Source of the DNA: a virus | Taxonomy: Duplodnaviria; Caudoviricetes | IMG/VR virus record: IMGVR_UViG_3300017751_000024 | Coordinates: 1 to 52,776 of that record | Length of the DNA stretch: 52,776 nucleotides | Direction: 5' to 3' (one strand) | In this document: positions 5,160 through 45,173 of the stretch, piece after piece | How the letters are laid out: each line of letters opens with the position of its first letter | Position numbering within the stretch: position 1 is the stretch's first letter | The notes under the pieces: generated by a model | What the model saw: only the letters and a program-made list of their open reading frames with translations | Told to the model about the DNA's origin: nothing | The model's database searches: none | Translations under genes and position numbers: made by a program

Positions 5160-5266
5160 TGGTTCTCCTAATAGGTGTTGAAGCAAGAGATGGAGAACAA
5201 ATATACACTACGATATAACTCACTCCAACACCATGCTACTTTTATGGAGTAGCCAACCATATTAAT

Positions 5267-5931: not shown

Positions 5932-5973
5932 ATTATATTCTCCTTTGAATACTGTAGTTAGATTTAAACATAA

Positions 5974-6529: not shown

Positions 6530-6546
6530 CCCTGTTCTCCTAAAAC

Positions 6547-7665: not shown

Positions 7666-7814
7666 ACGTTCTGCTCCTTCTCACATTGTGTTAGCCAGTC
7701 GTCAAAGTCGTTAGCTAATTCATTAGGCATATCGTTATTTAAAACAACTGGTTTAGGGTCATCACTCCATTCAACTAAAATAGTAGTTGATACTATTCTT
7801 CTTGTATTACTCAT
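7662..7814 (-). CDS. Hypothetical protein (50 aa)
   Basis: Not in track. MSNTRRIVSTTILVEWSDDPKP...; GAGGAG SD; ATGA coupling. Confidence 0.65.
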   Translation of the reverse strand: MSNTRRIVSTTILVEWSDDPKPVVLNNDMPNELANDFDDWLTQCEKEQNV

Positions 7815-7974
7815 CGTCTTGCTCCTCATCTGAGCTATAAACAGATAACTGTTCTACATAGCCACTATTTCTATATAACTGCTCCTCTATATAATCGTTA
7901 GCTTGTTCTTGTGATTCAGCAAATACATGAAAAGTTCCACTTACTTCAACTGTATATTCTTGTTCTTCAAACAT
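7807..7974 (-). CDS. Acidic hypothetical protein (55 aa)
   Basis: Not in track. MFEEQEYTVEVSGTFHVFAESQEQANDYIEEQL...; coupled to the upstream TAA; GAGGAG SD. Confidence 0.65.
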   Translation of the reverse strand: MFEEQEYTVEVSGTFHVFAESQEQANDYIEEQLYRNSGYVEQLSVYSSDEEQDDE

Positions 7975-8276
7975 TAGCTTTGCTCCTCTACTAAGTATCT
8001 AAAATGTGCTGGCATCTTTTCTTTTTGATAGTCCTTAGCCATTCTATCTAAGTCTTTAGAGGACATAGTATCTGCTGTTTTTTGTACAAGCCATTCAACT
8101 ACTAGCTGTAGTATTGGAAACTCTCCTTCATAATCCTCAACGTAGGACATGACATGCTCAATCAAATCATCTCTTAAGTCGTCTCGCATACCGTCTAGGC
8201 CAGGTATGTTTTGTAGGCTAAGTTGCACTAGGCCTAGTCTTTCTTCTAAAAATTGTGTGTGTCCTTCGTGGCTCAT
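7974..8276 (-). CDS. Hypothetical early protein
   Basis: 100-aa ORF, coupled. Confidence 0.7.
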   Translation of the reverse strand: MSHEGHTQFLEERLGLVQLSLQNIPGLDGMRDDLRDDLIEHVMSYVEDYEGEFPILQLVVEWLVQKTADTMSSKDLDRMAKDYQKEKMPAHFRYLVEEQS

Positions 8277-22604: not shown

Positions 22605-25600
22605 ATGGCAGGATATATACGACAAAGCACGTTTTCAGATGGCGATACCATCACAGCAGCAATATTTAATAATGAATATAATGGCTTAGCAAATGCTTTT
22701 AGCAATCAAACAGGACATAAGCATGACGGCTCAGCAGCCGAAGGCCCAGTTATAGGCGTTATTGGAGATGCAGGAGTAGTTGCTCCTCTTAATAAAGTAT
22801 TAATAGATACTACAAATGACCACATTGAGTTTTACATAGATGATTCAAGTAGTTCAGTACAGCAAGCTTATATAGGTAATGGAGTTATCGCACCTGTCAC
22901 AGATAGCGACATTGACTTAGGTACTAATGCTTTACGTTTTAAAGATGCTTACATAGATACAATAACTACAACAAGTAATGTTTCTGTAGGTGGAAACCTA
23001 ACTGTTACAGGTACTACTACATTTAATGGAGGAACATTAACATTAGGAGATGCATCATCAGACAATGTTGTTTTTGGTGCAGATGTAGACTCTAGTATTA
23101 TTCCAGATGATGATGATACATATGATTTAGGTTCAGCCACCCAGGAGTGGAGAAATTTATTTATTGACGGTACTGCTAATATTGATAGTTTAGTATTAGG
23201 TAGCGGTGAAACTGTCACAAGTATTCTTGATGAAGACGGATTAACTTCTAATAGTGCTAGTGCTTTAGCGACTCAACAATCTATCAAAGCTTATGTTGAT
23301 GCTCAAGTAACAGCTCAAGACTTAGACTTTCAAGGTGACTCAGGTGGAGCATTATCTATTGATTTAGATAGTGAAACTCTTGACATAGCTGGTGGTACAG
23401 GTATTGACACAACAGGCTCTGGTAATACACTAACAGTTGCTATTGATTCTACTGTAGCCACTTTAACAGGCTCACAAACTTTAACAAACAAAACAATAGA
23501 TGTAGATAACAATACGTTATCTAATATAGAAGTAGATAATCTTAAGTCTGGAGTTTTAGATACAGACATATCTTCAGTAGCAGGAACAGATACAACACTT
23601 GCTTCAGCTAAAGCTATTAAGACTTATGTTGATGCTCAAGTAACAGCTCAAGACTTAGATGCTACTACTGATAGTGGTACAGTTGCAATAGACCTGGATA
23701 GTGAAACATTAACTATTGCAGGTGGAGAAGGTATAGATACTTCAGGTTCTGGCAATACAATTACAATCACAGGTGAACTAGCTACAGAAACAAATGCTGG
23801 TGTTGCTACTTTTGATGGTACTGACTTTACAGTATCTTCAGGAGATGTAACTTTAAATGCAGAAAGAATACAAGATATTACTGGTGCAATGTTCTCAGGA
23901 AATACTGAGACAGGTATTGGAATTACTTATGATGATAGTGATGGAACAATAGATGCAGTAGTTACTTTATCTCCTTTTGATACAGACAATTTATCAGAAG
24001 GCTCAAGTAATTTATATTATACAGATGCTAGAGTAAGAAGTCATATCACAGGTTCGGAATTAGATATGGGCGGTAATAAAGTATTATTTGCTAATGTTTA
24101 TTCTAATGAAGCTGATTTACCAAGTGCATCAACATATCACGGTATGTTTGCACATGTCCATGCAACAGGTAAAGGTTACTTTGCACATGGAGGTGCATGG
24201 CATAAATTATTAGATGAAACATCTTCTGATACTGGCGATTTATCAGAAGGTAGTAATTTATATTATACAAATGCAAGAGCAGATGCAAGGATAGCAGCAG
24301 CTACAACAGATGACCTTTCAGAAGGTTCAAGTAATTTATACCATACAACAGAAAGAGTACAAGACATAGTAGGTGCTATGGTTGCTTCTAATACTGAAAG
24401 TGGTATGAGTGTAACTTATGATGATAGTGATGGTACTCTAGATTTCAATGCAGATGATTTTACAATTACATTAGGTGGAGATTTATCTGGTAATGTAACT
24501 ATTACAGATTTAGCAAATGGAACATTAGATGCAACTATAGTAGCTAATTCAGTTGCTCTTGGAACAGATACAACAGGAAATTATGTTGATAGTTTAGTTG
24601 CAGGGACTGGTGTTACTCTAAGTAATAATTCAGGCGAAGGTGCTACACCTACAGTAGCTATTGGACAAGCAGTAGCAACAAATTCAAATGTAAACTTTGG
24701 TTCGGTTACAACTACAGGTAATGCTACCGTAGGAGGAAATTTAGTTGTAAACGGAACTACAACTACTCTTAATACTGCTACATTAGATGTTGAAGATAAT
24801 AACATAACACTTAACAAAGGTTCAGGAGATACATCAGGTTCAGCAGACGGTGCAGGTCTTACAATTCAAGATGCTGTAAATTCTTCTACAGATGCAACTA
24901 TAGCCTGGAATGCAACTAATGATAACTTTGTGTTTTCACATGAAGTTGTTGCTCCAAGTTTAGATATATCAGGTAATGTAGATATTGACGGAACACTAGA
25001 AACAGATGCCTTAACTATTAACGGTACAGCTTCAGTTCCTTTTGAATCTGCTGACCACAATAAATTAGATGGCATAGAGGCTAATGCAACAGCAGACCAA
25101 ACTGCTTCTGAGATTAGAACATTAGTTGAAGCAGCAACAGACTCTAATGTCTTCACAGATGCTGACCATACTAAACTAAATGGAATAGAAGATAATGCTA
25201 CAGCAGACCAAACAAATGCTGAGATTAAAACTGCATACGAAGCTAATTCAAATACAAATGCATTTACAGATGCTTCAGTAACTAAACTTAGTAACATAGA
25301 GACTGGTGCGACAGCAGACCAAACAGATGCAGAAATAAGAACTGCAATAGAGTCAGCTACAGATTCAAATGTATTTACTGATGCAGACCATACTAAACTT
25401 AATGCTATTGAAGCAAATGCTACAGCCGACCAAACAGATGAAGAAATACAAGATATAGTAGGTGGAATGCTTGATAGTAATACTGAGACAGGTATTACAG
25501 TTACATATCAAGATAGTGACGGAACAATAGACTTTGTTGTAGCATCACAAACAGATGAAAACTTTACAACTGCTGACCATTCTAAATTAGATGGTATAGA

Positions 25601-28600
25601 AGCTGGAGCTACTGGCGACCAAACAGCAGCAGAGATTAGAACATTAGTAGAATCTGCTAGTGATTCTAACGTGTTTACTGATGCTGACCACACTAAGCTC
25701 AATGGTATTGAAGCAAGTGCTACAGCCGACCAGACAGCAGCAGAGATTAGAACATTAGTAGAGTCAGCAACAGACTCAAATGTATTTACAGATAATGACC
25801 ATACTAAATTAAATGCTATAGAGGCTAATGCTACCTCAGACCAGACCGCTTCTGAAATAAGAACTTTGGTTGAATCTGCTACAGACTCAAATGTATTTAC
25901 AGATAATGACCATAGTAAATTAAATGCTATAGAGGCTAGTGCTGATGTTACAGACTCAGCAAATGTAGGAGATGCATTAACAGGATTTAGTACAACAACT
26001 GATGCAACCTCAACAGACTTAGTTGCTTTCTATGATGTCTCAGCAAGTGCTTGGGAAAAAGGAACTATAGAAGATATAGCTTTACAAGGCACGAAAGGTC
26101 AAAAAGGTGCAGGTGGAGTTCTTGGCTCTAAAGGACAAAAAGGTGAAGTAGGTCAGAAAGGACAGAAAGGTGAAGTAGGTCAGAAAGGACAGAAAGGTGA
26201 AGTAGGTGCTGATGGAAGTAACGGTACTTCAGGTAATGATGGAGCTAAAGGACAGAAAGGTGAAGTAGGTGTTACTGGAGCTAAAGGACAAAAAGGTGAA
26301 GTAGGAGCTACTGGAGACAAAGGACAAAAAGGTGAAGCTGGTATTGACGGAGCTGCTTCAGACGGTACTAAAGGACAGAAAGGACAAAAAGGTGAAGTAG
26401 GTGTTACAGGTGCTAAAGGACAGAAAGGTGAAGTAGGAGCTACAGGTAGTGCTGGTTCAAACGGTAGCAATGGTTCTAAAGGACAAAAAGGTGAAGGCGG
26501 TGCTACAGGTGCTGGTGGAAGTACAGGTTCTAAAGGTCAGAAAGGTGAAGTAGGAGCTAACGGAAGTAACGGAAGTAATGGTTCTAAAGGACAAAAAGGC
26601 CAAGCTGGTTCTAATGGTTCTAATGGTTCAAAAGGTCAGAAAGGTCAAACAGGTGCTACAGGTGCTGGTGGTGATGACGGTAATGATGGCTCTAAAGGTC
26701 AGAAGGGTGAAGTAGGTGTTACAGGTTCTAAAGGACAGAAAGGTGAAGTAGGTCAGAAAGGACAAAAAGGTGAAGTAGGAGCTACAGGTTCTAAAGGACA
26801 GAAAGGTGTAAAAGGACAAGAAGGAAACTTCGGTGGTCAAACATTTGCTTATGACTTTGATACAAGTACATCAGATGCAGACCCAGGTAACGGTGAGTTA
26901 AGATTAAATAACGGTACTGTATCTAGTGCAAGTATACTATATATTGATGACCAAGATTCAGGTGGTACTGATATACAAAGTTATTTAAGAACTATTGATG
27001 ATAGTGACTCTACTATTAAAGGTCACGTAAGAATATCAAACAAATTAGATGCAACAGACTTTGCTCTATTTACAATTAGTGGTTCAATAACAGAAGCTTC
27101 AGGATATTTCAAAGTTCCTGTAGGTTATGTAAGTGGTTCAGCATCTTCATTCTCAAGTGGTGAAGACTTAATTGTAACCTTTGCAAGAACTGGAGACCAA
27201 GGTGATAAAGGTCAGAAGGGTGAAGTAGGAGCTACAGGTTCTAAAGGACAGAAAGGTGAAGTAGGTCAGAAAGGACAAAAAGGTGAAGTAGGTCAGAAAG
27301 GACAGAAAGGTGAAGTAGGAGCTACAGGTTCTAAAGGACAGAAAGGCCAGACAGGTGCAACAGGTGGTGCTGGTAACGATGGTAGTAATGGTTCTAAAGG
27401 ACAGAAAGGTGAAGTAGGTGCTAATGGAAGTAATGGAAGCAATGGCTCTAAAGGTCAGAAAGGCCAAGCTGGTTCTAATGGTTCTAATGGTTCAAATGGT
27501 TCTAAAGGACAAAAAGGTGAAGTAGGTACTACAGGTGATACAGGTGGAACAGGAGCTAAAGGCCAAAAAGGTCAGGCTGGTTCTAACGGTTCTAATGGTT
27601 CTAAAGGCCAGAAAGGTGAAGCTGGTTCTAATGGTACAAACGGTTCTAAAGGACAAAAAGGACAGAAAGGTGAAGTAGGTGGTACAGGTGGAACAGGTTC
27701 TAAAGGACAGAAAGGTGAAGTAGGTGGTACAGGTGGAACAGGTTCTAAAGGACAGAAAGGTGAAGCTGGTTCTAATGGTACAAACGGTTCTAAAGGACAA
27801 AAAGGCCAAGCTGGTTCTAATGGTACAAACGGTTCTAAAGGACAGAAAGGTGAAGCTGGTACTAATGGTACAAACGGTTCTAAAGGACAGAAAGGTCAAA
27901 CAGGGGCTGATTCGACAGTAGCAGGTGCTAAAGGTCAGAAAGGTCAAACAGGTGCTGCTTCAACAGTAGCAGGTGCTAAAGGTCAGAAAGGTGAGCAAGG
28001 TGCTTCAGTTACTGGTGCTAAAGGCCAGAAAGGTGAAGTAGGTGCTACAGGTACAGGTACTAAAGGACAGAAAGGTGAAGTAGGTGCTAAAGGACAAAAA
28101 GGTCAAACAGGTGCTGCTTCAACAGTAGCAGGCTCAAAAGGACAGAAAGGTCAGACAGGTGCTGATTCAACAGTAGCAGGTGCTAAAGGACAGAAAGGTG
28201 AAGTAGGTCAGAAAGGACAGAAAGGTGAAATAGGAGCTACAGGTGTAGGCCAGAAAGGCCAGAAAGGTGAAGTAGGTTCTAAAGGACAAAAAGGTCAGAC
28301 AGGTGCTGATTCAACAGTAGCAGGTTCTAAAGGTCAAAAAGGTACTACAGGTACTGGCTCTAAAGGACAGAAAGGTGAAGCAGGAGCATTTACCACAAGT
28401 TCAAATGCTCAAGTTAATAGTTTAGGTGTTAACACAGCAGGCTCAGGTACAGCAGGTGAGATTAGGGCAACTAATAACATTACGGCTTTCTATTCTGATG
28501 CAAGACTAAAAGACTTTGAAGGTACTATACCAAATGCTTTAGAAAAAGTATTAGCTCTAAGTGGTTATTACTTTAGAGAAAATGAAGTAGCTAAAGAACT

Positions 28601-28847
28601 AGGTTACGAAAATGATAAAAGACAAGTTGGTGTATCAGCTCAAGAGGTACAAGATGTATTACCAGAGGTAGTAACAGAAGCTCCTATTGATGATAAATAC
28701 TTAACAGTATGGTACGACAAGTTAGTTCCTTTATTAATCGAAGCTATTAAAGAACTAGCTGAAGACTCACATCCTGCAAAATGTTTACAAGACATGGAAG
28801 GTTTTGAAGATATACAAAGAAGGTTAGAAGACTTAGAGAATAAATAA
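22605..28847 (+). CDS. Long tail fibre with collagen domains and C-terminal intramolecular chaperone (peptidase S74-like)
   Basis: Capsid-proximal MAGYIRQS...GHKHDG domain, repeat modules, two Gly-X-Y blocks, YSDARLK...GVSAQEV..VLPEVV...LIEAIKEL. Confidence 0.9.
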   Translation: MAGYIRQSTFSDGDTITAAIFNNEYNGLANAFSNQTGHKHDGSAAEGPVIGVIGDAGVVAPLNKVLIDTTNDHIEFYIDDSSSSVQQAYIGNGVIAPVTDSDIDLGTNALRFKDAYIDTITTTSNVSVGGNLTVTGTTTFNGGTLTLGDASSDNVVFGADVDSSIIPDDDDTYDLGSATQEWRNLFIDGTANIDSLVLGSGETVTSILDEDGLTSNSASALATQQSIKAYVDAQVTAQDLDFQGDSGGALSIDLDSETLDIAGGTGIDTTGSGNTLTVAIDSTVATLTGSQTLTNKTIDVDNNTLSNIEVDNLKSGVLDTDISSVAGTDTTLASAKAIKTYVDAQVTAQDLDATTDSGTVAIDLDSETLTIAGGEGIDTSGSGNTITITGELATETNAGVATFDGTDFTVSSGDVTLNAERIQDITGAMFSGNTETGIGITYDDSDGTIDAVVTLSPFDTDNLSEGSSNLYYTDARVRSHITGSELDMGGNKVLFANVYSNEADLPSASTYHGMFAHVHATGKGYFAHGGAWHKLLDETSSDTGDLSEGSNLYYTNARADARIAAATTDDLSEGSSNLYHTTERVQDIVGAMVASNTESGMSVTYDDSDGTLDFNADDFTITLGGDLSGNVTITDLANGTLDATIVANSVALGTDTTGNYVDSLVAGTGVTLSNNSGEGATPTVAIGQAVATNSNVNFGSVTTTGNATVGGNLVVNGTTTTLNTATLDVEDNNITLNKGSGDTSGSADGAGLTIQDAVNSSTDATIAWNATNDNFVFSHEVVAPSLDISGNVDIDGTLETDALTINGTASVPFESADHNKLDGIEANATADQTASEIRTLVEAATDSNVFTDADHTKLNGIEDNATADQTNAEIKTAYEANSNTNAFTDASVTKLSNIETGATADQTDAEIRTAIESATDSNVFTDADHTKLNAIEANATADQTDEEIQDIVGGMLDSNTETGITVTYQDSDGTIDFVVASQTDENFTTADHSKLDGIEAGATGDQTAAEIRTLVESASDSNVFTDADHTKLNGIEASATADQTAAEIRTLVESATDSNVFTDNDHTKLNAIEANATSDQTASEIRTLVESATDSNVFTDNDHSKLNAIEASADVTDSANVGDALTGFSTTTDATSTDLVAFYDVSASAWEKGTIEDIALQGTKGQKGAGGVLGSKGQKGEVGQKGQKGEVGQKGQKGEVGADGSNGTSGNDGAKGQKGEVGVTGAKGQKGEVGATGDKGQKGEAGIDGAASDGTKGQKGQKGEVGVTGAKGQKGEVGATGSAGSNGSNGSKGQKGEGGATGAGGSTGSKGQKGEVGANGSNGSNGSKGQKGQAGSNGSNGSKGQKGQTGATGAGGDDGNDGSKGQKGEVGVTGSKGQKGEVGQKGQKGEVGATGSKGQKGVKGQEGNFGGQTFAYDFDTSTSDADPGNGELRLNNGTVSSASILYIDDQDSGGTDIQSYLRTIDDSDSTIKGHVRISNKLDATDFALFTISGSITEASGYFKVPVGYVSGSASSFSSGEDLIVTFARTGDQGDKGQKGEVGATGSKGQKGEVGQKGQKGEVGQKGQKGEVGATGSKGQKGQTGATGGAGNDGSNGSKGQKGEVGANGSNGSNGSKGQKGQAGSNGSNGSNGSKGQKGEVGTTGDTGGTGAKGQKGQAGSNGSNGSKGQKGEAGSNGTNGSKGQKGQKGEVGGTGGTGSKGQKGEVGGTGGTGSKGQKGEAGSNGTNGSKGQKGQAGSNGTNGSKGQKGEAGTNGTNGSKGQKGQTGADSTVAGAKGQKGQTGAASTVAGAKGQKGEQGASVTGAKGQKGEVGATGTGTKGQKGEVGAKGQKGQTGAASTVAGSKGQKGQTGADSTVAGAKGQKGEVGQKGQKGEIGATGVGQKGQKGEVGSKGQKGQTGADSTVAGSKGQKGTTGTGSKGQKGEAGAFTTSSNAQVNSLGVNTAGSGTAGEIRATNNITAFYSDARLKDFEGTIPNALEKVLALSGYYFRENEVAKELGYENDKRQVGVSAQEVQDVLPEVVTEAPIDDKYLTVWYDKLVPLLIEAIKELAEDSHPAKCLQDMEGFEDIQRRLEDLENK
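25053..25950 (+). repeat. 37-aa (111-bp) tandem repeats in the tail fibre
   Basis: Six full and two partial DHxKLxxIExxATADQTxxEIRTLVESATDSNVFTD units. Confidence 0.9.
26088..26834 (+). repeat. Collagen-like block 1 (GxKGQKGE)
   Basis: Near-continuous Gly-X-Y, about 36 Gly-X-Lys triplets, no Pro. Confidence 0.95.
27192..28385 (+). repeat. Collagen-like block 2 (GxKGQKGE)
   Basis: Gly-X-Y with short STVA interruptions, about 57 Gly-X-Lys triplets, no Pro. Confidence 0.95.
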
Positions 28848-29467
28848 TGGCGTATACTTGTAGAGATTTAACTATTGAAGAGGCTACACATTTAGAAGAA
28901 AGTGGAGTGATAGATGAGTTTTATCTCGCAAGTGAAAAATACTTAGACGAAGATAAGAACTTTAATTATGCTAACTGTGAGATAACTACAGAGCAGTTTA
29001 ATAATCTAACACAAGACCAAAAAAAATCTTTTTGGAGGTTGTTTCCAAAAGCAATAGGTAGGATTTTTGAACCAGTACCGTTTGAAGAACCATCACATAT
29101 TGTATATAAAACTTTAGCTTTACAAGCTCCAGATGGATATATATTACATCTTTATAATGGATATATAGATAATAATATTTGGGTAGAGGAAAGAGGTTTA
29201 ATAAGACCTGATGCTAATGGCTCAAGAGCTTATACATATACAAATGATTTTTGGACTTCTAAGTATACTTATTTAAAAAGTTTAGGCATAACTAAAATGA
29301 CAAGAATTGTAGAGACAGATTCAAAGCTTGCTACTTTATTAGCTAATCCAGATACATATAGTCATAATTCACATTTAGATATTTCAACATTAGTAATTGA
29401 AGACAAAGTAAGTAGCTACTCTTGGGCTGACGTAACACATAAACATATAACAATAGATTTAACATGA
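28847..29467 (+). CDS. Hypothetical protein (tail-fibre locus)
   Basis: 206-aa ORF coupled to the fibre gene. Confidence 0.7.
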   Translation: MAYTCRDLTIEEATHLEESGVIDEFYLASEKYLDEDKNFNYANCEITTEQFNNLTQDQKKSFWRLFPKAIGRIFEPVPFEEPSHIVYKTLALQAPDGYILHLYNGYIDNNIWVEERGLIRPDANGSRAYTYTNDFWTSKYTYLKSLGITKMTRIVETDSKLATLLANPDTYSHNSHLDISTLVIEDKVSSYSWADVTHKHITIDLT

Positions 29468-30267
29468 GTACATTAAAAGATACAAACGTAAGCTTTGATG
29501 GCATGAGAGATGTTTTTGATACTATGAATAGTAATGGAAGCACCTCTGCTTGGTCATTAAACAATCAAAAACATATTGACCGCTCACCTTTTATTAATGG
29601 TGGTCAAGGTGATGGAAAAGTTCCGCAACTGTTCAATGATAATGAAGCTACTTCAACAACTACGATGTTAGCATCCGATTTTAAAAGTATTATGAAAATT
29701 GATAGTGGGAGTGCATCAGCAACTACAGGTACTAATAAAAATCAAACGAACCATTTCATTCAAGGGTGGGGAACACTTCACGGTATGTATGCTGCTAGTG
29801 AAGAATATATAACAAACAATAATAGCGGTATTGGTACAGCATATGATGGAACTAATAGCTATGTAGGAACTGGAAACCCTTCAGGAGTTAGTAATCAAAA
29901 CTTTATACCTTTTACTAACTTTAATAGTAATTTTAATTCTAATAAAGATATTGCTGCCATTGGACTTTATACTGGAGGATTTCTGGGTCAGAACAGAAAA
30001 GTAAAATTAGTTTTTAGAGGCTCAGGAGCTAGTGCAACTGATACTGACTGGAGTAATATGTATCTAAGACAAGTAGATGATACTTACTTTGCTGGTGATG
30101 AAGCTTCTAATGTTCAGAGAGGTGTAGAACTATCTAGAACTAGCCTATCTGCATCAGTAACAACTTATTCAAATATTCTTTATGGTAGTTATTATGTACA
30201 TACATGGTCTTTACCTAGTCTAGTTAGTTTTAGTAGTACATCTACAACCTGGGTTAAGTTTGATTAA
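29464..30267 (+). CDS. Putative fibre-tip/receptor-binding protein
   Basis: S/T/N/G-rich beta-type composition; position after the fibre gene. Confidence 0.5.
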   Translation: MSTLKDTNVSFDGMRDVFDTMNSNGSTSAWSLNNQKHIDRSPFINGGQGDGKVPQLFNDNEATSTTTMLASDFKSIMKIDSGSASATTGTNKNQTNHFIQGWGTLHGMYAASEEYITNNNSGIGTAYDGTNSYVGTGNPSGVSNQNFIPFTNFNSNFNSNKDIAAIGLYTGGFLGQNRKVKLVFRGSGASATDTDWSNMYLRQVDDTYFAGDEASNVQRGVELSRTSLSASVTTYSNILYGSYYVHTWSLPSLVSFSSTSTTWVKFD

Positions 30268-30269
30268 TA

Positions 30270-30278
30270 TGATACAAT
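30270..30278 (+). promoter_or_regulatory. Extended -10 promoter candidate
   Basis: TG-A-TACAAT, 6 nt before ATG 30285, with no SD. Confidence 0.45.
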
Positions 30279-30284
30279 CTTATA

Positions 30285-32117
30285 ATGAAAAAATTAGTTA
30301 TAAGCTTACAAAGAAGAACAGATAGAAAAAAAGAATTTTATAAAAATAATTTAATAAATTATGAATTTATAAAAGCAATAGACTATAAAAGATTAGATGA
30401 CTTTATAGTTGATGAAGGGTTTAAAGACCCATTTAAAAATAGACCAGTTTTAGAAAGTGAAGTAGCATGTTTCTTATCTCATAAAAAAACATGGGAAAAA
30501 TGTTTAGAATTAAATGAGCCTGTAATTATCTTAGAAGATGATGCAGTAATAAATGAAAGATGGGATGAAGAATACTACAAAGACTTAATAAATAAATACG
30601 ATTTTATATACTTACAAAAGAATGAGAACGAACCTGACAAAGTTATAAGTATAGATAATAGATTAGAAATACCTTCTTATCCTTATAATTTAACAGGCTA
30701 CATAATAAAACCTTCAACGGCAAAAATTTTATTAGATAATATAGATAAAATTATTCCTGCTGATGAGTATGTACCTAAATTAATAAAGGAGAAAATTTTG
30801 AATAATGTAGTTTCGCTAAAACAAGATTCTTGTAATCAGATATCTAGGGATGTAAGCCCAAGTGATATTGAAGTCTCTTCAGGTATAGCTAGAAACTTTA
30901 AAGTACATCCGCTTACTATTGGAACAGATAGAAAGAAATGTTCTAGATTATTTACAAGTGCTAGAAGTTGTGGAGTAGATGTAGTAAATCTAGGAAACAA
31001 TGTAGAGTGGAAAGGTACTGATATGTCTGGCCCAGGTGGAGGCATGAAAGTAAACTTGTTAAGAAAATATATTAATAAGTTACCAGACAATGATGTAGTT
31101 TTATTTACAGATGCGTATGATGTTTTTTATGCAGATAATTTAGAAACTATTACAGAAAGATACTTAGGATTTAATTGTAAGGTTTTATTTTCAGCAGAAC
31201 AATACTGCTGGCCTGATGCAGATTTAGAACATGTGTTTCCAGATGCTCCTACTAAATATAGATTTTTAAATAGTGGAACATTTATAGGTGAGGTAGGTGA
31301 GCTTAAAAAGATACTAGAAACTGATTCTGTAAACGATGATGGAGATGACCAGTTATATTATCAAAAGATATTTTTAAGTGATAAGTTTGATATACAACTA
31401 GACTATGAAGGTTATATATTCCAAACACATGAAGCAAGTGCCACAATGCTTGAAGGACAACTTCATAATCCAGTAACAGGATGTTGTAGTTGTATTTACC
31501 ACGGTAATGGAGGGGACTTAACAAAGAAGAAATTTGACCAGATGTATGACAGATTTTTTCCAACTCCTAAAGAATTATTTACAACACACGAAGGTTTTGA
31601 AATATTAGATGATGACATATTGCTTGTAGATTTTATGACACAAGAACAATGTGAAAGAATGATTGAAATAGCTGACAATCATGGAGACTGGGGTTCTTTA
31701 GATTATGATAAGTTCCCAGCACAAGAGATAAGATTAAAAGAGTTAGGACTTTGGGAAGAACTAGAAAGTCATTGGCAAAAAAATATAGTTCCAATTATAG
31801 AAAATTATTGGAAGCCAATGGAAATGTACGGACTTAGAGATGCGTTTGTAATGAGATACTCAGTCGATACACAAAAAGATTTACCTTTACATACTGATGC
31901 TAGTTTAGTTACAGGAAGTGTAAAATTAAACGATGATTATGAAGGTGCTGATTTAGTTTATCCAAGACAGAATTTTAGTAATAAAAATATACCTGTAGGA
32001 AAATGTATATTATTTCCTGGAATGGTAACACACGGACATGCATGTCGAACCTTAACCAAAGGAGTTAAATATAGTTTTACTATATGGTCAAACAGATATC
32101 CTGGGGACGGTATGTAA
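30285..32117 (+). CDS. Trifunctional GT25 glycosyltransferase / PLOD-type glycosyltransferase / lysyl-hydroxylase-like 2OG-Fe(II) dioxygenase
   Basis: GT25: ISL.RR.DR, CFLSH..W, ILEDD. PLOD-GT: GGG.KV, FTDAYD, FSAE..CWPD, RFLNSG.FIG, DDQLYY, HGNG. LH: FVMRY, HTD, LN.DYEG, FPG.VTHGH, GVKY. Confidence 0.88.
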   Translation: MKKLVISLQRRTDRKKEFYKNNLINYEFIKAIDYKRLDDFIVDEGFKDPFKNRPVLESEVACFLSHKKTWEKCLELNEPVIILEDDAVINERWDEEYYKDLINKYDFIYLQKNENEPDKVISIDNRLEIPSYPYNLTGYIIKPSTAKILLDNIDKIIPADEYVPKLIKEKILNNVVSLKQDSCNQISRDVSPSDIEVSSGIARNFKVHPLTIGTDRKKCSRLFTSARSCGVDVVNLGNNVEWKGTDMSGPGGGMKVNLLRKYINKLPDNDVVLFTDAYDVFYADNLETITERYLGFNCKVLFSAEQYCWPDADLEHVFPDAPTKYRFLNSGTFIGEVGELKKILETDSVNDDGDDQLYYQKIFLSDKFDIQLDYEGYIFQTHEASATMLEGQLHNPVTGCCSCIYHGNGGDLTKKKFDQMYDRFFPTPKELFTTHEGFEILDDDILLVDFMTQEQCERMIEIADNHGDWGSLDYDKFPAQEIRLKELGLWEELESHWQKNIVPIIENYWKPMEMYGLRDAFVMRYSVDTQKDLPLHTDASLVTGSVKLNDDYEGADLVYPRQNFSNKNIPVGKCILFPGMVTHGHACRTLTKGVKYSFTIWSNRYPGDGM

Positions 32118-38765: not shown

Positions 38766-41700
38766 ATGTCAAACTTTAATTATTCTCCCAGTTTTTCTAA
38801 AAGAAATCAACAAAGCACACCTATTCAACAATATGACTTAAATGATTTAGAAGGAGATAAAGAGTTCCAGGCAGTCTCTGAAAGATTCTTAGGTTCTATT
38901 GGTGAACAAAATGATATCTTTGAGTATTTAAGAGACTCTGATTTTAACCTTACGTCAGCTATGAAAAGATATGCTGACTCTAATAAGTTTACTGAACAAC
39001 AAAAGAAAGACTATCAATACTTAAGAACTATGTTTGATGGTGCAGATATAGGTAGTACAGGACAGTTCCTTGAATTAGTTAAAGACGGAGCAATAGATAT
39101 GGTTACTGACCCTACTCTAATACTAGCTGCTTTGTTTACTCCTTTTACAGGAGGCGGAACATTAGCTACTAGAGCTACAGTAGGTAAAGGAACTGCTCAA
39201 GCTTTGAAGATGTTAGGTCAAGCTAATAAAGGAGCTTTAAATAAAACACAGCTTAAAAAAGCTATTGCTGATGGGTCGCTAGAAGAAGCTGCAAAAGCTG
39301 CAACAAAAGTAGCAGGCGGTATGGGTGCAGTAGAAGCTGGTGGCTGGATGGGTTTACACAACCATGCTAATCAAAATATAGAAATAAATACAGGCTTAAG
39401 AAGAGCTTACTCATCAAAAGAGTTAGTAGGCTCAACTGTTGCTGGTGTTTTACTAGGTGGTGTTGCTGGCTATGGTGGACAAAAGTGGTCTAATTATTCA
39501 AATCCAGTTTTACAAATAAACAATAAACCTAAAGTCTATAGAGACGATAGTATTATAGATAATGTCCGATTAAAGTTTAATCAAGCCTGGGACAATACTG
39601 TAGGTAGAGTTATATTAGGTAATGCTGCTCAACTAAGAACCTTAGAAAAACAAGGAGTAAAGTATGCATCTTACTTCAGAGGTTTATTAGACCATGATTC
39701 TCAGTTAGGTATAGGTAAGAGAAGTAATAAAAAAGTAGAGTGGAGTTTTCCTGAACAATTAAATGCAAGACGAGGCAATTATATGTTCATGGAAGAAGGA
39801 CAGCGAGTAGGATTTTTTAAGACTATAGAGCCTATAGCTCCTGATGGAGTTATGATGCAAGCCGATGAGCTTGCTATTATTAGATTCTTAAGAGGAAATA
39901 AAAAAGCATTACAAGGAAGAAGCAAAGAAACAAAACAAGTAGCTAATGATTTAAGAAAATGGTTTGATGGTATAGCTAGAGATGCTCAAGAAGCAGGTTT
40001 TGGTGATATAAGAATAGAAGATTACTTTCCAAGAGAATGGAATAGACAAGCTATAAAAGATAATAAACCAGAGTTTGTTGCACAGTTATCTAAGGATTTA
40101 AAAATATCCAAAAAAGAAGCAGATGATATTGCAGAGGGTATGTTAAATATTAATAATGAATTATATGCTAGCCATAGCAACTTACTTACTCACGGTAGAA
40201 AATTAAAATTAGATGACAATGCTTATGAAAAATATCTAACTAATGAATTAATACCTGTTAGTGCTAGTTATGGTTTAAACGCTGCTAATACAATACAAAC
40301 TAAACTAAGCTTTTTAGGCGGTGCTAAATCTAATGTAAAGGTTGTAAAAAGCAAAGACATAGAAGGTAATGAAGTATTAACATTTCAAAGCTTAAGACAA
40401 AATAATATAGATGATTTTATAAGAACTCACGTAGACCCTTTAGATGAAGACGTGTTCAAAACTTTAGGTAGACGTTTAACAGCTACAGAAAGAAAAGACA
40501 TGATAGAATCTTTCAAGTCTGTTACAGGTGCGGTAAACTTTTTTGAAGGGCAAATAAAACAAGGAGTATATGATGGCCTCAAGCTTGCTAATGCTATGGC
40601 TTACCTACCTTTAGCTACTGTCTCTTCTTTCTCAGAAGGTTTGATAGCAGCTTCTAGAATATCAGGAAAGCAATCTGTAAAAAACTTTCAGTACCAACTA
40701 GAAAATGGTATGCAATTTTTAACATCGGATTTAAAAAGTTTGTTAAAAGAAAGGAGAGGCCTATCAGAAGTTGTAGCTAACAGAGAAGCTAATAGAGTTT
40801 ACTTAGCTGTAGATGACGTGCAAGCAGATTTAACAAATAGATTAGCTGGTGATGGATTACAAAACGCAAGTCTACAAAAAGGAGCTAGAGTATTTTACAA
40901 AGCCAACTTACTATTACCTTGGACAAAGACTATTGAGCTTGCAGCTTTTAATACAGGTAGAGATATAGTTGAAGAATCATTAATTCAGTTAAGTAAACTA
41001 CAAAAAGCTGGAGTAAAAATCTTTGATGATGTTGATACTTTTGTAAACTCAACAACAGGTAAAGATAAAGACATACTTAAACAACTAGATAGTATGGATG
41101 GAGTTTGGGCTGGTAAAGGTAATCTTTATAAAAGAACAAATTATTTAAAAGAACAAATACAAGACATGGGTATAAGTGTCAAAGAAGGATTGGATTGGTT
41201 AGAGTCTGGTGCAAAAAGAAATAATAATTTTTGGACACAAGAGATGTCTAAAGCAGGTGGTAGATTTGCAAGAAGTGTAATCTTACCTACATCTAGAGAA
41301 TTTTCTAAAGTGCCTAGATATATGACTAATCCTAAATGGGATATATTTACACAGTTTTTAAGATACCCTACAGCGTTTAGTAATACTGTATTAAAAAACT
41401 TTGCTAGAGATACTTTAAATAGTCCTGGAATGTCAGCTCCAAGGTTTGCTGCTTTTGTAGCAGGCTCAACAGCTATTGCAAGAGGTACTAATTACTGGAG
41501 AAGTAGTCCAGAACAACAAGCAAAGTATGACCAGTTTGCAAGAAAGCCAGGAACTGATTTAAAAGGTAAAGCTTTCGATGTTTTTGTAGCTAGAAGTGCA
41601 GAAGAAAACCTTAGAGCTTTTCAAAGAGTAGGTTTATTAGGCCCAATAGAATATGGTTTAAGATTTGCAGATGCTTATAGAGCAAATCCAAATCCTTTAG

Positions 41701-42500
41701 TAGCTGTATCAAGTTTAGGTGGCCCTGTTATGGGAGACATTACAGGCTCTACAATCTACAACAGAGGATTGTTTGAAACGTTAGCAAGAAAAACTCCTTT
41801 GATAGGTATTAGACATCCACTTAAAAAATACACAGGCTTTGACCCCTTTGAACCAATCATTGAAGGCGGTAGATTTATAGACGAAGAAGCTAGATACCAA
41901 CTACAACAAGGTATTGAAGATGTACTACCACCAAGAGTAGGTTATAAGAAAGGTGGGATTGTAAAAGAAACATTTAAAGAAATGGGACGTATGCAATATA
42001 ACACAGGAAGTCTTGTAATAAATGATAAAACTATTGATAAAGAAACAAGAATAAGATTTGATAATATAGATAATGATTTAAAAAACTTAGGATATGGTAA
42101 AGTTGCTAGAGCAGCTATTCTTGGTAATATCCATGTAGAGACAGGTGGTACTTACGACCATCAACAAAAACAAGACAAGGGTAATGGTTATGGTCTTTAT
42201 CAATTTGATTTTCAAAAAAAATATTATATGGAAAATGAAGATAGCTATTTGACATCAAACAAGTTTGAAGATACCCCCATGAATCAAACTATGTTTATGC
42301 ATGAAAGTATAAATCAATTAGCACCAGGAAAACACACAGTAGATAAAAATAAAATAAGCCAGTTGCAAAGAGATTTACAGGGTGATGATGTAGCAAGAGC
42401 AGCTATTTCATTTTCTGAAAATTATCTACAGCCTGGAACACCACATATAGATAGAAGAAGAGATGCATCCAGAACTATATTTAAAGTATTAGGAGATTAG
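38766..42500 (+). CDS. Large internal virion protein with C-terminal phage-tail-lysozyme-like domain
   Basis: EDYFPR and QFLRYP motifs of large ejection proteins; C-terminal AAILGNIHVETGG...GYGLYQF...F.ENYLQPG.PH..RR. Confidence 0.78.
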   Translation: MSNFNYSPSFSKRNQQSTPIQQYDLNDLEGDKEFQAVSERFLGSIGEQNDIFEYLRDSDFNLTSAMKRYADSNKFTEQQKKDYQYLRTMFDGADIGSTGQFLELVKDGAIDMVTDPTLILAALFTPFTGGGTLATRATVGKGTAQALKMLGQANKGALNKTQLKKAIADGSLEEAAKAATKVAGGMGAVEAGGWMGLHNHANQNIEINTGLRRAYSSKELVGSTVAGVLLGGVAGYGGQKWSNYSNPVLQINNKPKVYRDDSIIDNVRLKFNQAWDNTVGRVILGNAAQLRTLEKQGVKYASYFRGLLDHDSQLGIGKRSNKKVEWSFPEQLNARRGNYMFMEEGQRVGFFKTIEPIAPDGVMMQADELAIIRFLRGNKKALQGRSKETKQVANDLRKWFDGIARDAQEAGFGDIRIEDYFPREWNRQAIKDNKPEFVAQLSKDLKISKKEADDIAEGMLNINNELYASHSNLLTHGRKLKLDDNAYEKYLTNELIPVSASYGLNAANTIQTKLSFLGGAKSNVKVVKSKDIEGNEVLTFQSLRQNNIDDFIRTHVDPLDEDVFKTLGRRLTATERKDMIESFKSVTGAVNFFEGQIKQGVYDGLKLANAMAYLPLATVSSFSEGLIAASRISGKQSVKNFQYQLENGMQFLTSDLKSLLKERRGLSEVVANREANRVYLAVDDVQADLTNRLAGDGLQNASLQKGARVFYKANLLLPWTKTIELAAFNTGRDIVEESLIQLSKLQKAGVKIFDDVDTFVNSTTGKDKDILKQLDSMDGVWAGKGNLYKRTNYLKEQIQDMGISVKEGLDWLESGAKRNNNFWTQEMSKAGGRFARSVILPTSREFSKVPRYMTNPKWDIFTQFLRYPTAFSNTVLKNFARDTLNSPGMSAPRFAAFVAGSTAIARGTNYWRSSPEQQAKYDQFARKPGTDLKGKAFDVFVARSAEENLRAFQRVGLLGPIEYGLRFADAYRANPNPLVAVSSLGGPVMGDITGSTIYNRGLFETLARKTPLIGIRHPLKKYTGFDPFEPIIEGGRFIDEEARYQLQQGIEDVLPPRVGYKKGGIVKETFKEMGRMQYNTGSLVINDKTIDKETRIRFDNIDNDLKNLGYGKVARAAILGNIHVETGGTYDHQQKQDKGNGYGLYQFDFQKKYYMENEDSYLTSNKFEDTPMNQTMFMHESINQLAPGKHTVDKNKISQLQRDLQGDDVARAAISFSENYLQPGTPHIDRRRDASRTIFKVLGD

Positions 42501-43232: not shown

Positions 43233-43722
43233 ACTTATCCCAACATTTAAAAGTAAGAAGGCTGAAAGAAACTGCGAGTTCTGTATGTTCTTTTGGTCTA
43301 TATTAGTTGTGTTTTGGTCTCTTAATAGTATTGCAGATGAAATGGTACATAAGTTTAAGAACCCATCATTTAGTGGTATAGGTACATCAGCACATTATTT
43401 AACTATAGAGAACCAAGAGTTTACTAGAAAGATGAGTATAAAAGAAGAACTCAAAGCTCTACAAGAACAAATAGAAAGAGATAAGGAGAACACAACATTA
43501 GCTAGATTTATCAGGAATTTAGAATCTAGAATATATGCACAACTATCTAGACAATTAGTAGAAAATTTATTCGGAGAAAATCCTAGCACAAATGGCATAC
43601 TAACTTTAGAAGGTAATACTATAGAATACAGTATAGAAGACGGAATAATAACACTAACTATAACAGCAAGCGATGGAACACAAACAACTATTCAGTTGCC
43701 TATTGGTGATTTTTCTTTTTAG
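43204..43722 (+). CDS. csgF: Curli assembly protein CsgF-like (start may be ATG 43285)
   Basis: Signal peptide, then F.NPSFSG...IENQ, ESRIYAQLSRQL..NLFG and C-terminal G..T.I.LP; adjacent to csgG. Confidence 0.85.
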   Translation: MERKTKGKIKLIPTFKSKKAERNCEFCMFFWSILVVFWSLNSIADEMVHKFKNPSFSGIGTSAHYLTIENQEFTRKMSIKEELKALQEQIERDKENTTLARFIRNLESRIYAQLSRQLVENLFGENPSTNGILTLEGNTIEYSIEDGIITLTITASDGTQTTIQLPIGDFSF

Positions 43723-44482
43723 TGGATGTGCAGTATTAAGTAAGAATGACGACTTAGTTCTATCGAAAAAAATACAGCCTTCAACCATATTAGAAATACA
43801 ATCAGATGAGCTATTTAAAATGCCTGGTGCTAAACAACAACCAGTTGTTGCGGTATACCCTAATAGTTTTAAAGATTTAACAGGGCAAAGAAGAAGTAAT
43901 AGTTCTTTTGCTTTATTTAGTACAGCTATAACACAAGCTCCAGAAGCAATATTGATAAGGGCTTTGAAGCATACATCAGATGGTAAGTTCTTTAAAGTAG
44001 TAGAACGTGTTGGACTTGATGACCTTACAAAAGAAAGACAATTAATTAGGACAACTCGTAAAGAGTTTAAAGAAGATGCAAAATTACAGCCTTTGCTTTT
44101 TGCAGGGCTTATGTTCCAGGGAGGTGTAATCTCGTATGAGGCTAACCTACAATCTGGAGGTGCTGGTGCTAGATACCTAGGAATAGGTAACAGTAAACAG
44201 TATAGAGAAGATACTGTAATTATTTCACTACGATTAGTTTCAGTATCTACAGGTGAAGTGTTAGTAGAGACATCAGTTTCTAAAAGCATTTTATCTACAA
44301 GTGTTTCTCAGGACGTGTTTCGTTTTATAGAAGCTGGCACAGAGCTGGTGGAAATAGAAGGAGGAGTAGCTGAGAACGAATCTATCGCTATTGCTTTAAC
44401 AAAAGCAGTAGAGACAGGTGTACTAAATATAATAAAAATAGGAATAGGGAGAGGCTATTGGGAATATGAAGAATCTAATTAG
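43673..44482 (+). CDS. csgG: Curli secretion pore CsgG-like lipoprotein
   Basis: Lipobox FSGC; F.DLTGQR, STA.TQ, VVER.GLD.L.KERQ.IR, LLFAG, GG.GARYLGIG..KQYR.D, SLRLVSV.TGEV. Confidence 0.93.
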   Translation: MEHKQLFSCLLVIFLFSGCAVLSKNDDLVLSKKIQPSTILEIQSDELFKMPGAKQQPVVAVYPNSFKDLTGQRRSNSSFALFSTAITQAPEAILIRALKHTSDGKFFKVVERVGLDDLTKERQLIRTTRKEFKEDAKLQPLLFAGLMFQGGVISYEANLQSGGAGARYLGIGNSKQYREDTVIISLRLVSVSTGEVLVETSVSKSILSTSVSQDVFRFIEAGTELVEIEGGVAENESIAIALTKAVETGVLNIIKIGIGRGYWEYEESN

Positions 44483-45173
44483 TATATTAGTTATGTTGTC
44501 GCTAAGTGCATTAGCAGATAATGAAATATATATTGACCAATCAGGCGATACCGCCAATATTGATTTAGAACAACTAGGAGGAGATAGTAACATCATTGCT
44601 GGGTTAGAAAGCACAGCAGGAAATTTAACACCGTTAGATTTAGATGGAGACAGTCTTACTCTAGACATAAATCAAATAGGTGGTTCTAATACTTTTCTAG
44701 GAGATATTTGGGCTGACAATTTTACAGGCTATTTTAATTTTGATGGAAGCAGTAATGATTTCACAATTCAAGTAGACCCAAGTAACACTTATGGTGCAGA
44801 CAGTTCAGATGTTAACATTGACGTGTCAGGTAGTAGTAATGATTTTACGCTAGACTTAGCTACAACAGCTATGGCTAGTAATACAGACCTTGACTGGATT
44901 GTAAATGGCGATGGAAACGTATTTGATTTTGATATTAATTATGATGGAGCTACAAACTATGTAGACGTTGACGGTGATTCAAACACAGTTAACTTTGAAG
45001 GTAGTGGTTATGCTGGTGGGTATTTTTACCTAGACCAGACAGGCGACTCACGGACTTTTGACATCCAACAATTAAGCACATTAAATAATGATTGGCTCAA
45101 AATTATATCCAATGGTTCTAATGGCAGCGTGTGTATTATCCAAGACGATAATGGCACAGCCGTTGGATGCTAG
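44466..45173 (+). CDS. Secreted curlin-like beta-solenoid protein
   Basis: Signal peptide ending ALA; repeated Q/D-x-G-x-x-N units (NEIYIDQSGD, LEQLGGDSN, INQIGGSN, LDQTGDS); next to csgG. Confidence 0.65.
   Translation: MKNLISILVMLSLSALADNEIYIDQSGDTANIDLEQLGGDSNIIAGLESTAGNLTPLDLDGDSLTLDINQIGGSNTFLGDIWADNFTGYFNFDGSSNDFTIQVDPSNTYGADSSDVNIDVSGSSNDFTLDLATTAMASNTDLDWIVNGDGNVFDFDINYDGATNYVDVDGDSNTVNFEGSGYAGGYFYLDQTGDSRTFDIQQLSTLNNDWLKIISNGSNGSVCIIQDDNGTAVGC

Follow-up and report, generated by a model that had tools for sequence, protein, structure and literature searches.

The closest described systems to the one reported here are the collagen lysine-modifying enzymes of giant viruses and animals. 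The mimivirus protein L230 (895 amino acids, aa) has an N-terminal GLT25D1-like domain with the motif E106-D107-D108 and a C-terminal PLOD-like hydroxylase (PMC9614988). It hydroxylates the lysines of viral collagen, acting on X-Lys-Gly, and adds glucose (Glc) directly to hydroxylysine (Hyl); its GT25-homologous domain was reported to use uridine diphosphate (UDP)-Glc (PMC9614988). A second mimivirus protein, R699, glucosylates galactosyl-hydroxylysine (PMC9614988, PMC9546862, PMC12279948), and R655 is a putative GT25-like enzyme. In humans, LH3 (PLOD3) and COLGALT1 (GLT25D1) make up the 'KOGG' complex. Here we analysed a 52,776-bp stretch of DNA, called the window below, which is the complete record IMGVR_UViG_3300017751_000024 of a tailed virus (Duplodnaviria; Caudoviricetes) with direct terminal repeats. 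The window encodes a collagen-containing tail fibre of 2080 aa (22605-28847, + strand) and, as the third gene downstream, a 610-aa enzyme (30285-32117, + strand) in which two glycosyltransferase (GT) domains are joined to a lysyl hydroxylase (LH)-type dioxygenase domain. We consider it likely, with a probability of about 75%, that this enzyme hydroxylates and glycosylates lysines of the phage's own fibre.

The nearest architecture came from an exhaustive search of representative sequences, which recovered proteins of about 880-990 aa made up of GT25, GT_PLOD, a gap and a C-terminal dioxygenase. In one of them, P0193 (911 aa), residues 2-178 matched COLGALT1, residues 243-911 matched LH3 over its whole length, and the C-terminus matched the LH chain of L230 with an E-value of 1.8e-54. 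The phage enzyme is colinear with P0193, with 31% identity in each of two aligned segments (aa 1-379 with 1-418, and aa 441-596 with 740-904). The L230/P0193 class thus resembles the phage enzyme in being viral and in the N-to-C order of a GT25 domain with an E-D-D motif (E84-D85-D86 in the phage enzyme), a PLOD-type GT (PLOD-GT) domain and an LH domain. L230 acts on a collagen-like protein of its own virus, in which Lys stands at Y of the Gly-X-Y triplets (PMC9614988), and we propose a corresponding substrate for the phage enzyme. In contrast to P0193 and LH3, the phage enzyme is without the accessory (AC) region of about 320 residues. It has Lys595 where L230 has Arg887 and P0193 an Arg, and it belongs to a virus of bacteria with a tail fibre as the proposed substrate, whereas the hosts of the L230 virus are amoebae. 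Judging from P0193, L230 itself would have a central PLOD-GT domain, although the papers describe its N- and C-terminal domains only. An earlier note on this DNA had proposed that one phage enzyme fuses all three steps. The three domains were indeed present, but the fusion is not peculiar to phages, since P0193 has the same order; it probably also holds for the L230 class, although the papers call L230 bifunctional.

The human enzymes offer the same three chemistries as those proposed here, and their mapped residues have counterparts in the phage enzyme. The KOGG complex is a heterotetramer of two polypeptides in the endoplasmic reticulum, whereas the phage enzyme is one 610-aa chain, presumably cytoplasmic; neither the AC domain of LH3 nor the additional N-terminal GT domain of COLGALT1 is present in it. 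Mimivirus R699 and R655 are separate proteins, while the phage fuses their counterparts to the hydroxylase. R699 also has an AC domain, through which it dimerises (PMC12279948), unlike the AC-less phage protein. Among phages, the genes annotated as '2-oxoglutarate (2OG)-Fe(II) oxygenase' (phrog_61) in the cyanophages S-PRM1, S-CAM9 and S-8S53/55/56 belong to the same family as the window enzyme. For some bacterial dioxygenases, Iyer et al. 2010 predicted a role in modifying collagen-like or tail-collar proteins, and they suggested secondary metabolism for the tandem dioxygenase arrays of cyanophages (PMC2938197). A PLOD/GT25 fusion tied to phage tail fibres was not found in the main-text passages of that paper. 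More widely, the literature yielded no paper describing hydroxylysine or a PLOD/LH-type enzyme from a tailed phage, judged partly by titles and abstracts and with supplements excluded, which agrees with the earlier note. The chemistry and the domains are known; the architecture, the range of hosts and the setting of the substrate are new.

Domains and active sites of the enzyme

Pfam assigned a GT25 domain (PF01755) to aa 2-161 (30288-30767, + strand; E 4.9e-23, 82.5 bits against a cut-off of 24) and a GT_PLOD domain (PF25342) to aa 207-417 (30903-31535, + strand; E 4.7e-52, 177.1 bits against a cut-off of 27). The LH-type 2OG/Fe(II) dioxygenase domain at aa 439-602 (31599-32090, + strand) was identified by alignment to LH3 and L230 and by fold. 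Over its full length the enzyme matched phrog_61 of PHROGs at E 9.1e-114, a family labelled only '2OG-Fe(II) oxygenase'. The N-terminal domain matched the C-terminal domain of COLGALT1 (E 2e-9; E 5e-10 over aa 5-168), which is its best solved relative, and mimivirus R655 more weakly (E 1.7e-4; Foldseek E 1.1e-9). In the centre, aa 217-384 matched the GT domain of LH3 in a search of Protein Data Bank (PDB) sequences, and the domain matched R699 at E 4.6e-26 (phmmer). At the C-terminus, aa 444-598 matched the LH domain of LH3 (i-E 6e-6) and that of L230 (E 1e-6).

The predicted fold gave the same assignments. An AlphaFold2 model built on 60 homologues had a mean predicted local distance difference test (pLDDT) value of 90.3 and a predicted template modelling score of 0.84. 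In Foldseek, the modelled central domain superposed on the human GGT domain 6wfv with a TMt of 0.84 and, as root-mean-square deviation (RMSD), 2.2 Å over 228 columns, and on R699 at 2.4 Å over 235 columns. The C-terminal domain superposed on the L230 LH structure 6ax6 (TMt 0.76, RMSD 1.7 Å, 170 columns, E 1.8e-12). The N-terminal domain matched COLGALT1 more loosely, at 3.2-4.1 Å (9evk, 3.2 Å over 220 columns; 9evj, E 6.3e-13). Identities to the human enzymes in the Foldseek alignments were only 16-31%. The linker between the GT and LH parts was about 20 residues, and no AC Rossmann domain was found in the enzyme. Judged by sequence and model, the 610-aa protein is a compact, AC-less member, of the Lys595 type, of the L230/LH3 plus COLGALT kind.

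To compare active sites, residues were mapped through HMMER alignments with a chain-index offset of +23 for LH3 and +27 for COLGALT1, checked on the V80K mutant and on E435. Residue roles were taken from PMC6082870, PMC11897130, PMC5802723 and PMC12279948, and conservation was read from a MAFFT alignment of 129 homologues with 42-88% identity to the enzyme. In the GT25 domain, R14, S65, E84-x-D86 and D160 correspond to R354, S415, E435-x-D437 and D522 of COLGALT1, in which E435-x-D437 binds Mn2+ and D522 is the proposed base (PMC11897130). E84, D86, H66 and D160 were each kept in 129/129 homologues, D85 in 128/129 and S65 in at least 128/129, and R14 was invariant among 60 aligned sequences.

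The PLOD-GT domain carried the LH3 motifs in the forms GGGMKV, DAYD, FSAEQYCWPD, RFLNSGTFIG, DDGDDQLYY and HGNG. In LH3, Mn2+ is held at a non-canonical DxxD site with a stacking Tyr, and Trp75 of the glycoloop stacks on the uridine (PMC6082870). W242 of the enzyme corresponds to W75, D276/Y278/D279 to D112/Y114/D115, W309 to W145, D354/D355 to D190/D191 of the poly-Asp repeat and H406 to H253. We take K255 to be the counterpart of LH3 K89. W242, K255, D276, D279, D355 and H406 were each present in all 129 homologues and D354 in 128. Two positions varied: Y278 was Tyr in 112/129 and Phe in 17/129, and W309, the counterpart of the gating Trp145, was Trp in 89/129 and Tyr in 40/129.

In the LH domain, the iron triad H536-x-D538...H585, corresponding to H667, D669 and H719 of LH3, was kept in 129, 128 and 129 of the 129 homologues, and Y525 (LH3 Y656) in all of them. 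The Arg, Tyr and Cys that mark the 2OG pocket of the LH family were kept only at the Tyr. K595 aligned to LH3 Arg729 in the HMMER alignment and L557 replaced Cys691, and both were fixed, as Lys and as Leu, in 129/129 homologues, so the Arg position still holds a basic residue. Lys is known to anchor 2OG in some other 2OG oxygenases. Because Lys595 is fixed across the family, it should be regarded as a family trait and not as a lesion, although together with Leu557 it is unlike every LH described in the four papers named above for residue roles.

The reading of this protein in the earlier note held up well. It had described a GT25 domain, a GT domain matching LH3 motif by motif, and a dioxygenase with an HxD...H triad and a Lys in place of the 2OG-binding Arg. 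All listed motifs were found, and each domain matched LH3, COLGALT1 or L230 in the Pfam, PDB sequence and Foldseek comparisons, with the active sites conserved.

L230 forms a tail-to-tail homodimer, required for activity, through the strand that holds Leu873 before the second His. For the phage LH domain, a two-copy prediction scored 0.62, compared with 0.00 for the best of three controls. Contacts agreed to at least 84% across runs and pLDDT was at least 86; of 30 solved homodimers 20 attained the score mark applied, as did 1 of 23 proteins solved as single chains. The predicted interface included residues 578-584, the strand that in L230 holds Leu873. The LH3 and L230 dimers are solved, so the score may owe to resemblance to these known structures, and the predicted dimer indicates a likeness and no more.

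The collagen fibre and its coupling to the enzyme

The tail fibre, the proposed substrate, matched the Pfam Collagen family at E 1.5e-73. Two collagen blocks were located by script, with triplets counted in runs of at least four. Block 1 (fibre aa 1162-1412; 26088-26840, + strand) contains runs of 30 and 53 triplets, and block 2 (aa 1530-1918; 27192-28358, + strand) a run of 80 triplets and eight short runs, with interruptions of 2-4 residues each. The earlier note had seen about 90 Gly-X-Lys triplets here, three genes before the enzyme, and the counts and gene order bore this out. Of the 204 Gly-X-Y triplets in the blocks, 89 carry Lys at Y and none carries it at X, and Pro is absent; two open reading frames (ORFs; 28847-29467 and 29464-30267) separate the fibre from the enzyme at 30285-32117. 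There are 93 overlapping G-x-K-G motifs. The commonest unit, x-K-G-Q-K-G-E-V-G, is abundant in block 1, and the residue following K-G was Gln in 50 and Glu in 29 of 81 cases. A Peptidase_S74 intramolecular chaperone domain lies at aa 1964-2023 (28494-28673, + strand; Pfam E 1.7e-10). Chaperones of this type trimerise fibres and are afterwards cleaved off. The long Gly-X-Y runs (30, 53 and 80) combined with the S74 trimerisation domain mark the protein as a collagen-like trimeric fibre, and it is the only ORF of the window with at least eight triplets in runs of at least five.

The N-terminal anchor of the fibre (aa 1-369) was 63% identical to the fibre of phage HMO-2011 (tblastn), and aa ~806-1122 were 40-67% identical to fibres of cyanophages and of podophage Lau218 among the tblastn matches listed. 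Because the anchor is HMO-2011-like and the middle cyanophage-like, the fibre is a mosaic with inserted collagen.

The enzyme family is large. Scoring of 8000 candidates gave 810 clusters (90% identity) that passed E 1e-3; in the search of representative sequences (50% identity), 213 passed E 1e-30. A tblastn search of 50,697 phage records gave 11 records of named phages, representing seven distinct viruses. In six of them a collagen fibre whose triplets have Lys at Y but in no case at X lies just upstream on the same strand: S-PRM1 (23 of 59 triplets), S-CAM9 (22/59), S-8S53, S-8S55 and S-8S56 (24/55 each) and Roseobacter phage CRP-6 (26/99). The seventh, AG-345-L05, has only 1.8 kb of upstream sequence. 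A set of related loci comprised 49 IMG/VR loci and L001-L003 (S-PRM1, CRP-6 and S-CAM9), so that the fibres of these three are counted again. All 28 loci with at least 4.6 kb upstream had a collagen ORF there on the same strand; these ORFs have 59-339 triplets, of which 17-96 carry Lys at Y and none carries it at X. Eight further loci with shorter flanks had a truncated collagen ORF, and the 16 without upstream collagen all had at most 2.4 kb of upstream sequence.

The coupling was also seen outside this set. A scan of prokaryotes at one genome per species (185,579) gave five loci, all on contigs of metagenome-assembled genomes (MAGs) of 2.5-61 kb; it used two peptide patterns only, which distant cellular relatives would escape. 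Three of the five had an upstream collagen fibre, and these were all of the loci with at least 2.4 kb upstream (3/3 with Lys at Y). In a replication set, reached through two architectural variants of the enzyme, 23 loci had at least 1.7 kb of upstream sequence, and 19 of these had a Lys-at-Y fibre, including L185, the locus of the two-domain variant itself. L216-L220, which were GT25-only or weak partial matches from the scan with the variant P0151, were left out of the counts as non-family. Of the remaining four loci, only L211 (an 81-kb record) was long enough to judge. No collagen was found there within 8 kb, but at a distance of 15 kb the record has two collagen ORFs, in which 21/26 and 12/26 triplets carry Lys at Y and none carries it at X. 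The enzyme was never met in a sufficiently long record without a Lys-at-Y collagen protein, and every examined locus with a collagen ORF had Lys at Y and never at X. This pairing occurred in pelagiphage-like podoviruses, in cyanomyoviruses and in phage CRP-6. The homologues thus co-occur with Lys-at-Y collagen, in line with the test that the earlier note had proposed.

As controls, we took 80 viral loci found by a generic Gly-codon period-9 DNA pattern, among the matches listed (at least 118 stretches). In the 79 listed loci with at least 10 triplets the median Lys-at-Y fraction was 0.013, compared with 0.44 in the window fibre, and Lys at X occurred in 30. The fraction in 29 enzyme-linked fibres was 0.146-0.77 with a median of 0.35. 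Chance could be excluded from the domain E-values and the Lys-at-Y fractions of the controls. A whole-record search, which does recover the enzyme when applied to the record of the window, gave the three-domain enzyme in 0 of 71 listed control records, most of them incomplete; one record gave a weak match (E 2.7e-8) to a 208-aa stand-alone oxygenase. In HTVC104P, HTVC115P and HMO-2011, relatives of the same phage type, no enzyme was found by tblastn and no collagen run in the structural regions. Since some Lys-at-Y collagens occur without the enzyme, the enzyme predicts the type of collagen and not the reverse.

The linked fibres varied widely in Pro, from 0 to 115 residues each. The earlier note had proposed to test whether homologues accompany GxKG-rich fibres and not Pro/Thr-rich ones; the link to Lys at Y stood, but among 36 enzyme-linked fibres of at least 50 triplets, 18 were Pro-rich. 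In the Pro-rich fibres of L001, L013, L038, L049 and the S-8S phages, K-G-Q-K-G-E islands are set among G-P-T/G-P-Q repeats, while that of L024 has mostly A-K-G-A-T-G instead. A Pro-free helix as the defining feature was rejected on this range of Pro content, and the constant feature of the linked fibres is Lys at Y and never at X.

One further lineage (L030-L032 and L044; fibre ORF ~100-5326) has the unit (G-T-K-G-A-K)n, with Lys at Y in 54 of 70 triplets and no K-G-Q-K-G. Its enzyme gene lies 4.7 kb downstream of the fibre, after two more large ORFs. If this repeat is a substrate, recognition needs no Q-K-G-E context.

Proposed pathway and alternative explanations

We propose that the enzyme would act in the host cytoplasm on nascent fibre chains that are still unfolded. 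The C-terminal dioxygenase, probably as a tail-to-tail dimer, would convert the Y-position Lys of X-Lys-Gly to 5-hydroxylysine, with Lys595 instead of Arg holding the C5 carboxylate of 2OG. The GT25 domain would add a first hexose to the hydroxyl, which would be galactose (Gal) if COLGALT1 is the model and Glc if L230 is. The PLOD-type domain would add the second hexose (LH3 and R699 use Glc at this step); an order of Gal and then Glc is suggested by the animal enzymes only. The fibre would then trimerise from its C-terminal S74 domain and zip into a triple helix with up to about 90 modified lysines per chain. The modification might benefit the phage through helix stability, protease shielding or adhesion.

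Several observations weigh against this proposal. The case is built wholly on homology and gene linkage. K-G-E and K-G-D pairs stabilise triple helices electrostatically, so the Lys pattern could be explained without an enzyme. Three loci of the replication set showed no collagen: L212 (24 kb, 10% complete) had none within 8 kb, and L210 and L213 are 4.6-kb contigs that are 2% complete. Of the 79 listed control loci, 11 reached a Lys-at-Y fraction of at least 0.15 and no enzyme was found in their records, most of which are incomplete. The enzyme loci are also not independent. Many are closely related, with perhaps 6-10 lineages by enzyme identity, and the counts and the Mann-Whitney p of 1e-13 therefore overstate the support. 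At the active sites, the UDP-contact residue G377 of COLGALT1 aligns to Tyr34 in the enzyme (Gly in most homologues), and the UDP-contact T571, like E572, lies beyond the alignable region. The 2OG pocket carries the changes of Arg729 to Lys and Cys691 to Leu, and mutating the Arg729 equivalent abolished the activity of LH1 and L230 (PMC6082870). Finally, two working transferases are not guaranteed, because one GT domain of COLGALT1 is probably non-catalytic and only one sugar was seen with L230.

The likeliest of the alternatives is that the enzyme hydroxylates lysines but adds one sugar or none, one GT domain being structural or UDP-sugar-binding. The possible models are the N-terminal GT domain of COLGALT1 and the GT domains of LH1 and LH2. 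The GalT-N domain of COLGALT1 binds UDP-sugar and is probably non-catalytic (Peng 2025, PMC11897130). For L230 only Glc-Hyl was reported, mutants of its GT25-like domain were unstable and the active GT was never pinned down (PMC9614988). Natural two-domain variants are consistent with such a division as well, as in P0144 (PLOD-GT plus LH, with a Lys-at-Y fibre at L185) and P0151 (GT25 plus PLOD-GT). Against this, the mapped metal-binding and catalytic residues of both transferases were kept in 129/129 or 128/129 homologues. The W145 loop and the poly-Asp motif were also kept, although neither the loop, in the other LHs, nor the poly-Asp is described as conserved (Scietti 2018, PMC6082870). We therefore regard the loss of one or both sugar transfers as unlikely.

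The gene could instead be an auxiliary or host-takeover gene that remodels host lipopolysaccharide (LPS), the host surface or cytoplasmic molecules, its position beside the fibre being incidental. Homologues appear in databases as 'GR25 family glycosyltransferase involved in LPS biosynthesis', the PHROGs category of the family is 'moron, auxiliary metabolic gene and host takeover', and GT25 does include bacterial lipooligosaccharide galactosyltransferases (PDB 8xlz family). In L211, moreover, the neighbours of the gene are radical-SAM-like and small oxygenase-like genes, and the collagen genes lie 15 kb away. However, such labels are automatic annotation, and for the PLOD-GT and LH domains collagen enzymes are by far the best matches. 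The gene also tracks Lys-at-Y fibres across podoviruses, myoviruses and CRP-6-type phages, although the envelopes of SAR11-like bacteria, Synechococcus and Roseobacter differ, and sister phages of the same hosts that have no collagen are also without the gene. On this tracking across unrelated hosts, and on the absence in the sisters, a host-directed role was rejected as the leading explanation; we find it very improbable.

It is also highly improbable that Lys at Y serves only electrostatic K-G-E/K-G-D stabilisation of a helix without hydroxyproline while the enzyme modifies another phage protein. The frequencies of Glu and Gln after K-G in the window fibre (29 and 50 of 81) and the control collagens with Lys at Y but no enzyme fit this idea, but the fibre is the sole ORF of the window with such triplet runs, no long-enough record with the enzyme was without such a collagen protein, and the known LH enzymes, L230 included, act on X-Lys-Gly (PMC9614988). 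A bacterial origin of the locus, or a prophage, was dismissed because the scan of 185,579 species with two peptide patterns gave only five loci, all on MAG contigs and three of them with the collagen fibre upstream.

If the enzyme does modify the fibre as we propose, glycosylated hydroxylysine would occur for the first time in a virus of bacteria and would be made for the first time in a bacterial cytoplasm. A large, ocean-abundant phage family now labelled '2OG-Fe(II) oxygenase', 'LPS glycosyltransferase' or auxiliary metabolic gene would gain a function, and part of the cyanophage dioxygenase arrays would be fibre-maturation genes. A soluble 610-aa enzyme, possibly performing all Lys steps, could serve to make modified recombinant collagen in Escherichia coli, a goal already named for L230 and R699 (PMC9546862). 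It would also be a minimal model of how a chain passes between three active sites, a question left open for the human complex (Peng 2025, PMC11897130). The claim is directly testable because cultured carriers exist, namely S-PRM1, S-CAM9, S-8S53/55/56 and CRP-6.

A broader and rather doubtful reading is that marine phages share a portable cassette consisting of a K-G-Q-K-G-E fibre module, the one-chain enzyme and, where Pro is present, PF13640 genes. Under it, hydroxylysine glycosylation would take place on a large scale in SAR11-like bacteria, Synechococcus and Roseobacter, although it has hitherto been deemed a modification of animals and giant viruses. The AC-less form would be minimal and possibly ancestral, and the animal toolkit would have viral or bacterial roots.

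Gene layout, neighbouring oxygenases and family variants

The window encodes a T7-type DNA polymerase, a primase/helicase, a ribonucleotide reductase, a terminase, a portal protein, a major head protein and tail proteins. Its large terminase shared 67% identity with its counterpart in Pelagibacter phage HTVC115P and 64% with those in HTVC103P/104P, followed by HMO-2011-type roseophages. By gene content and terminase identity the virus is an HMO-2011-type podovirus closest to Pelagibacter phages, and its host is probably SAR11-like.

All structural genes lie on the + strand. The fibre, the 206-aa gene, the 267-aa gene and the enzyme gene follow one another in this order, abutting or overlapping, and no terminator-like site was found on the + strand between 25777 and 34464. 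Co-transcription from the fibre to the enzyme late in infection seems likely. The 206-aa gene (28847-29467, + strand) belongs to no Pfam or PHROG family and matched only viral hypothetical clusters in the Atlas; it recurs in the closest relatives, for example as a 206-aa ORF in locus L004. The 267-aa gene (29464-30267, + strand) also has no Pfam or PHROG family, its Atlas leads were all below 0.9, and its similarity to the ORF at the same position in locus L013 was not significant.

Large virion-type proteins are encoded downstream. A 1244-aa protein (38766-42500, + strand) with a C-terminal Phage_lysozyme2 domain (E 1.3e-15) is preceded by family-less proteins of 807, 389, 213 and 721 aa, and these five are probably the ejected internal-virion proteins of the podovirus. 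Three consecutive genes (43673-47927) then form an envelope/signalling set unusual in a podovirus: a CsgG-like curli-secretion-channel protein (43673-44482, + strand; PF03783, E 2.4e-47), a FecR-domain protein (45088-46197, + strand; E 1.3e-10) and a protein with CHASE2 and adenylate/guanylate cyclase domains (46197-47927, + strand; E 2.3e-28 and 9.8e-21).

In related loci, small oxygenases of the PF13640 (P4H) type lie between fibre and enzyme. Of 18 Pro-rich loci 12 had one there, compared with none of 18 Pro-free loci, and the six Pro-rich loci without one make up a single lineage. Examples are L001 (8839-10001), L003 (8839-10004), L024 (4479-5512) and L038 (8872-9426), and further cases occur in L181-L183. 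In the S-PRM1 and S-CAM9 fibres Pro stands at X in 30 and 31 triplets, so the target position of the PF13640 enzymes would differ from the classical hydroxylation at Y. The correlation, seen among related loci, fits a modular collagen-maturation cassette.

A nucleotide-sugar/NAD-dependent epimerase is annotated 4-7 kb downstream of the enzyme in S-PRM1 and S-8S53/55/56 (L001 15428-16219; L181 11879-12580; L182 18881-19579; L183 18880-19581) and could supply the UDP-hexose donor. None is annotated within 10 kb downstream in S-CAM9, and none was found among the window ORFs scanned.

The T4-like contig L211 presents a different neighbourhood (1-7430, - strand; 7450-8001, + strand). There the enzyme adjoins ORFs with radical-SAM-like Cys motifs and lies near small 2OG-oxygenase-like ORFs, both recognised by eye, beside baseplate-like genes. 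This suggests a larger protein- or peptide-modification island.

Finally, a group of variants (P0122, P0132, P0144 and P0151) showed other domain combinations. One form of 942 aa has two GT25 domains, a PLOD-GT domain and an oxygenase. Another, of 875 aa, combines a methyltransferase with GT25 and PLOD-GT; Pfam lists no oxygenase family in it, and its C-terminal part aligns to the window enzyme through aa 608. The two shortest forms are P0151, which has 440 aa and consists of GT25 and PLOD-GT, and P0144 of locus L185, which consists of PLOD-GT and LH in 417 aa and is accompanied by a Lys-at-Y collagen fibre.

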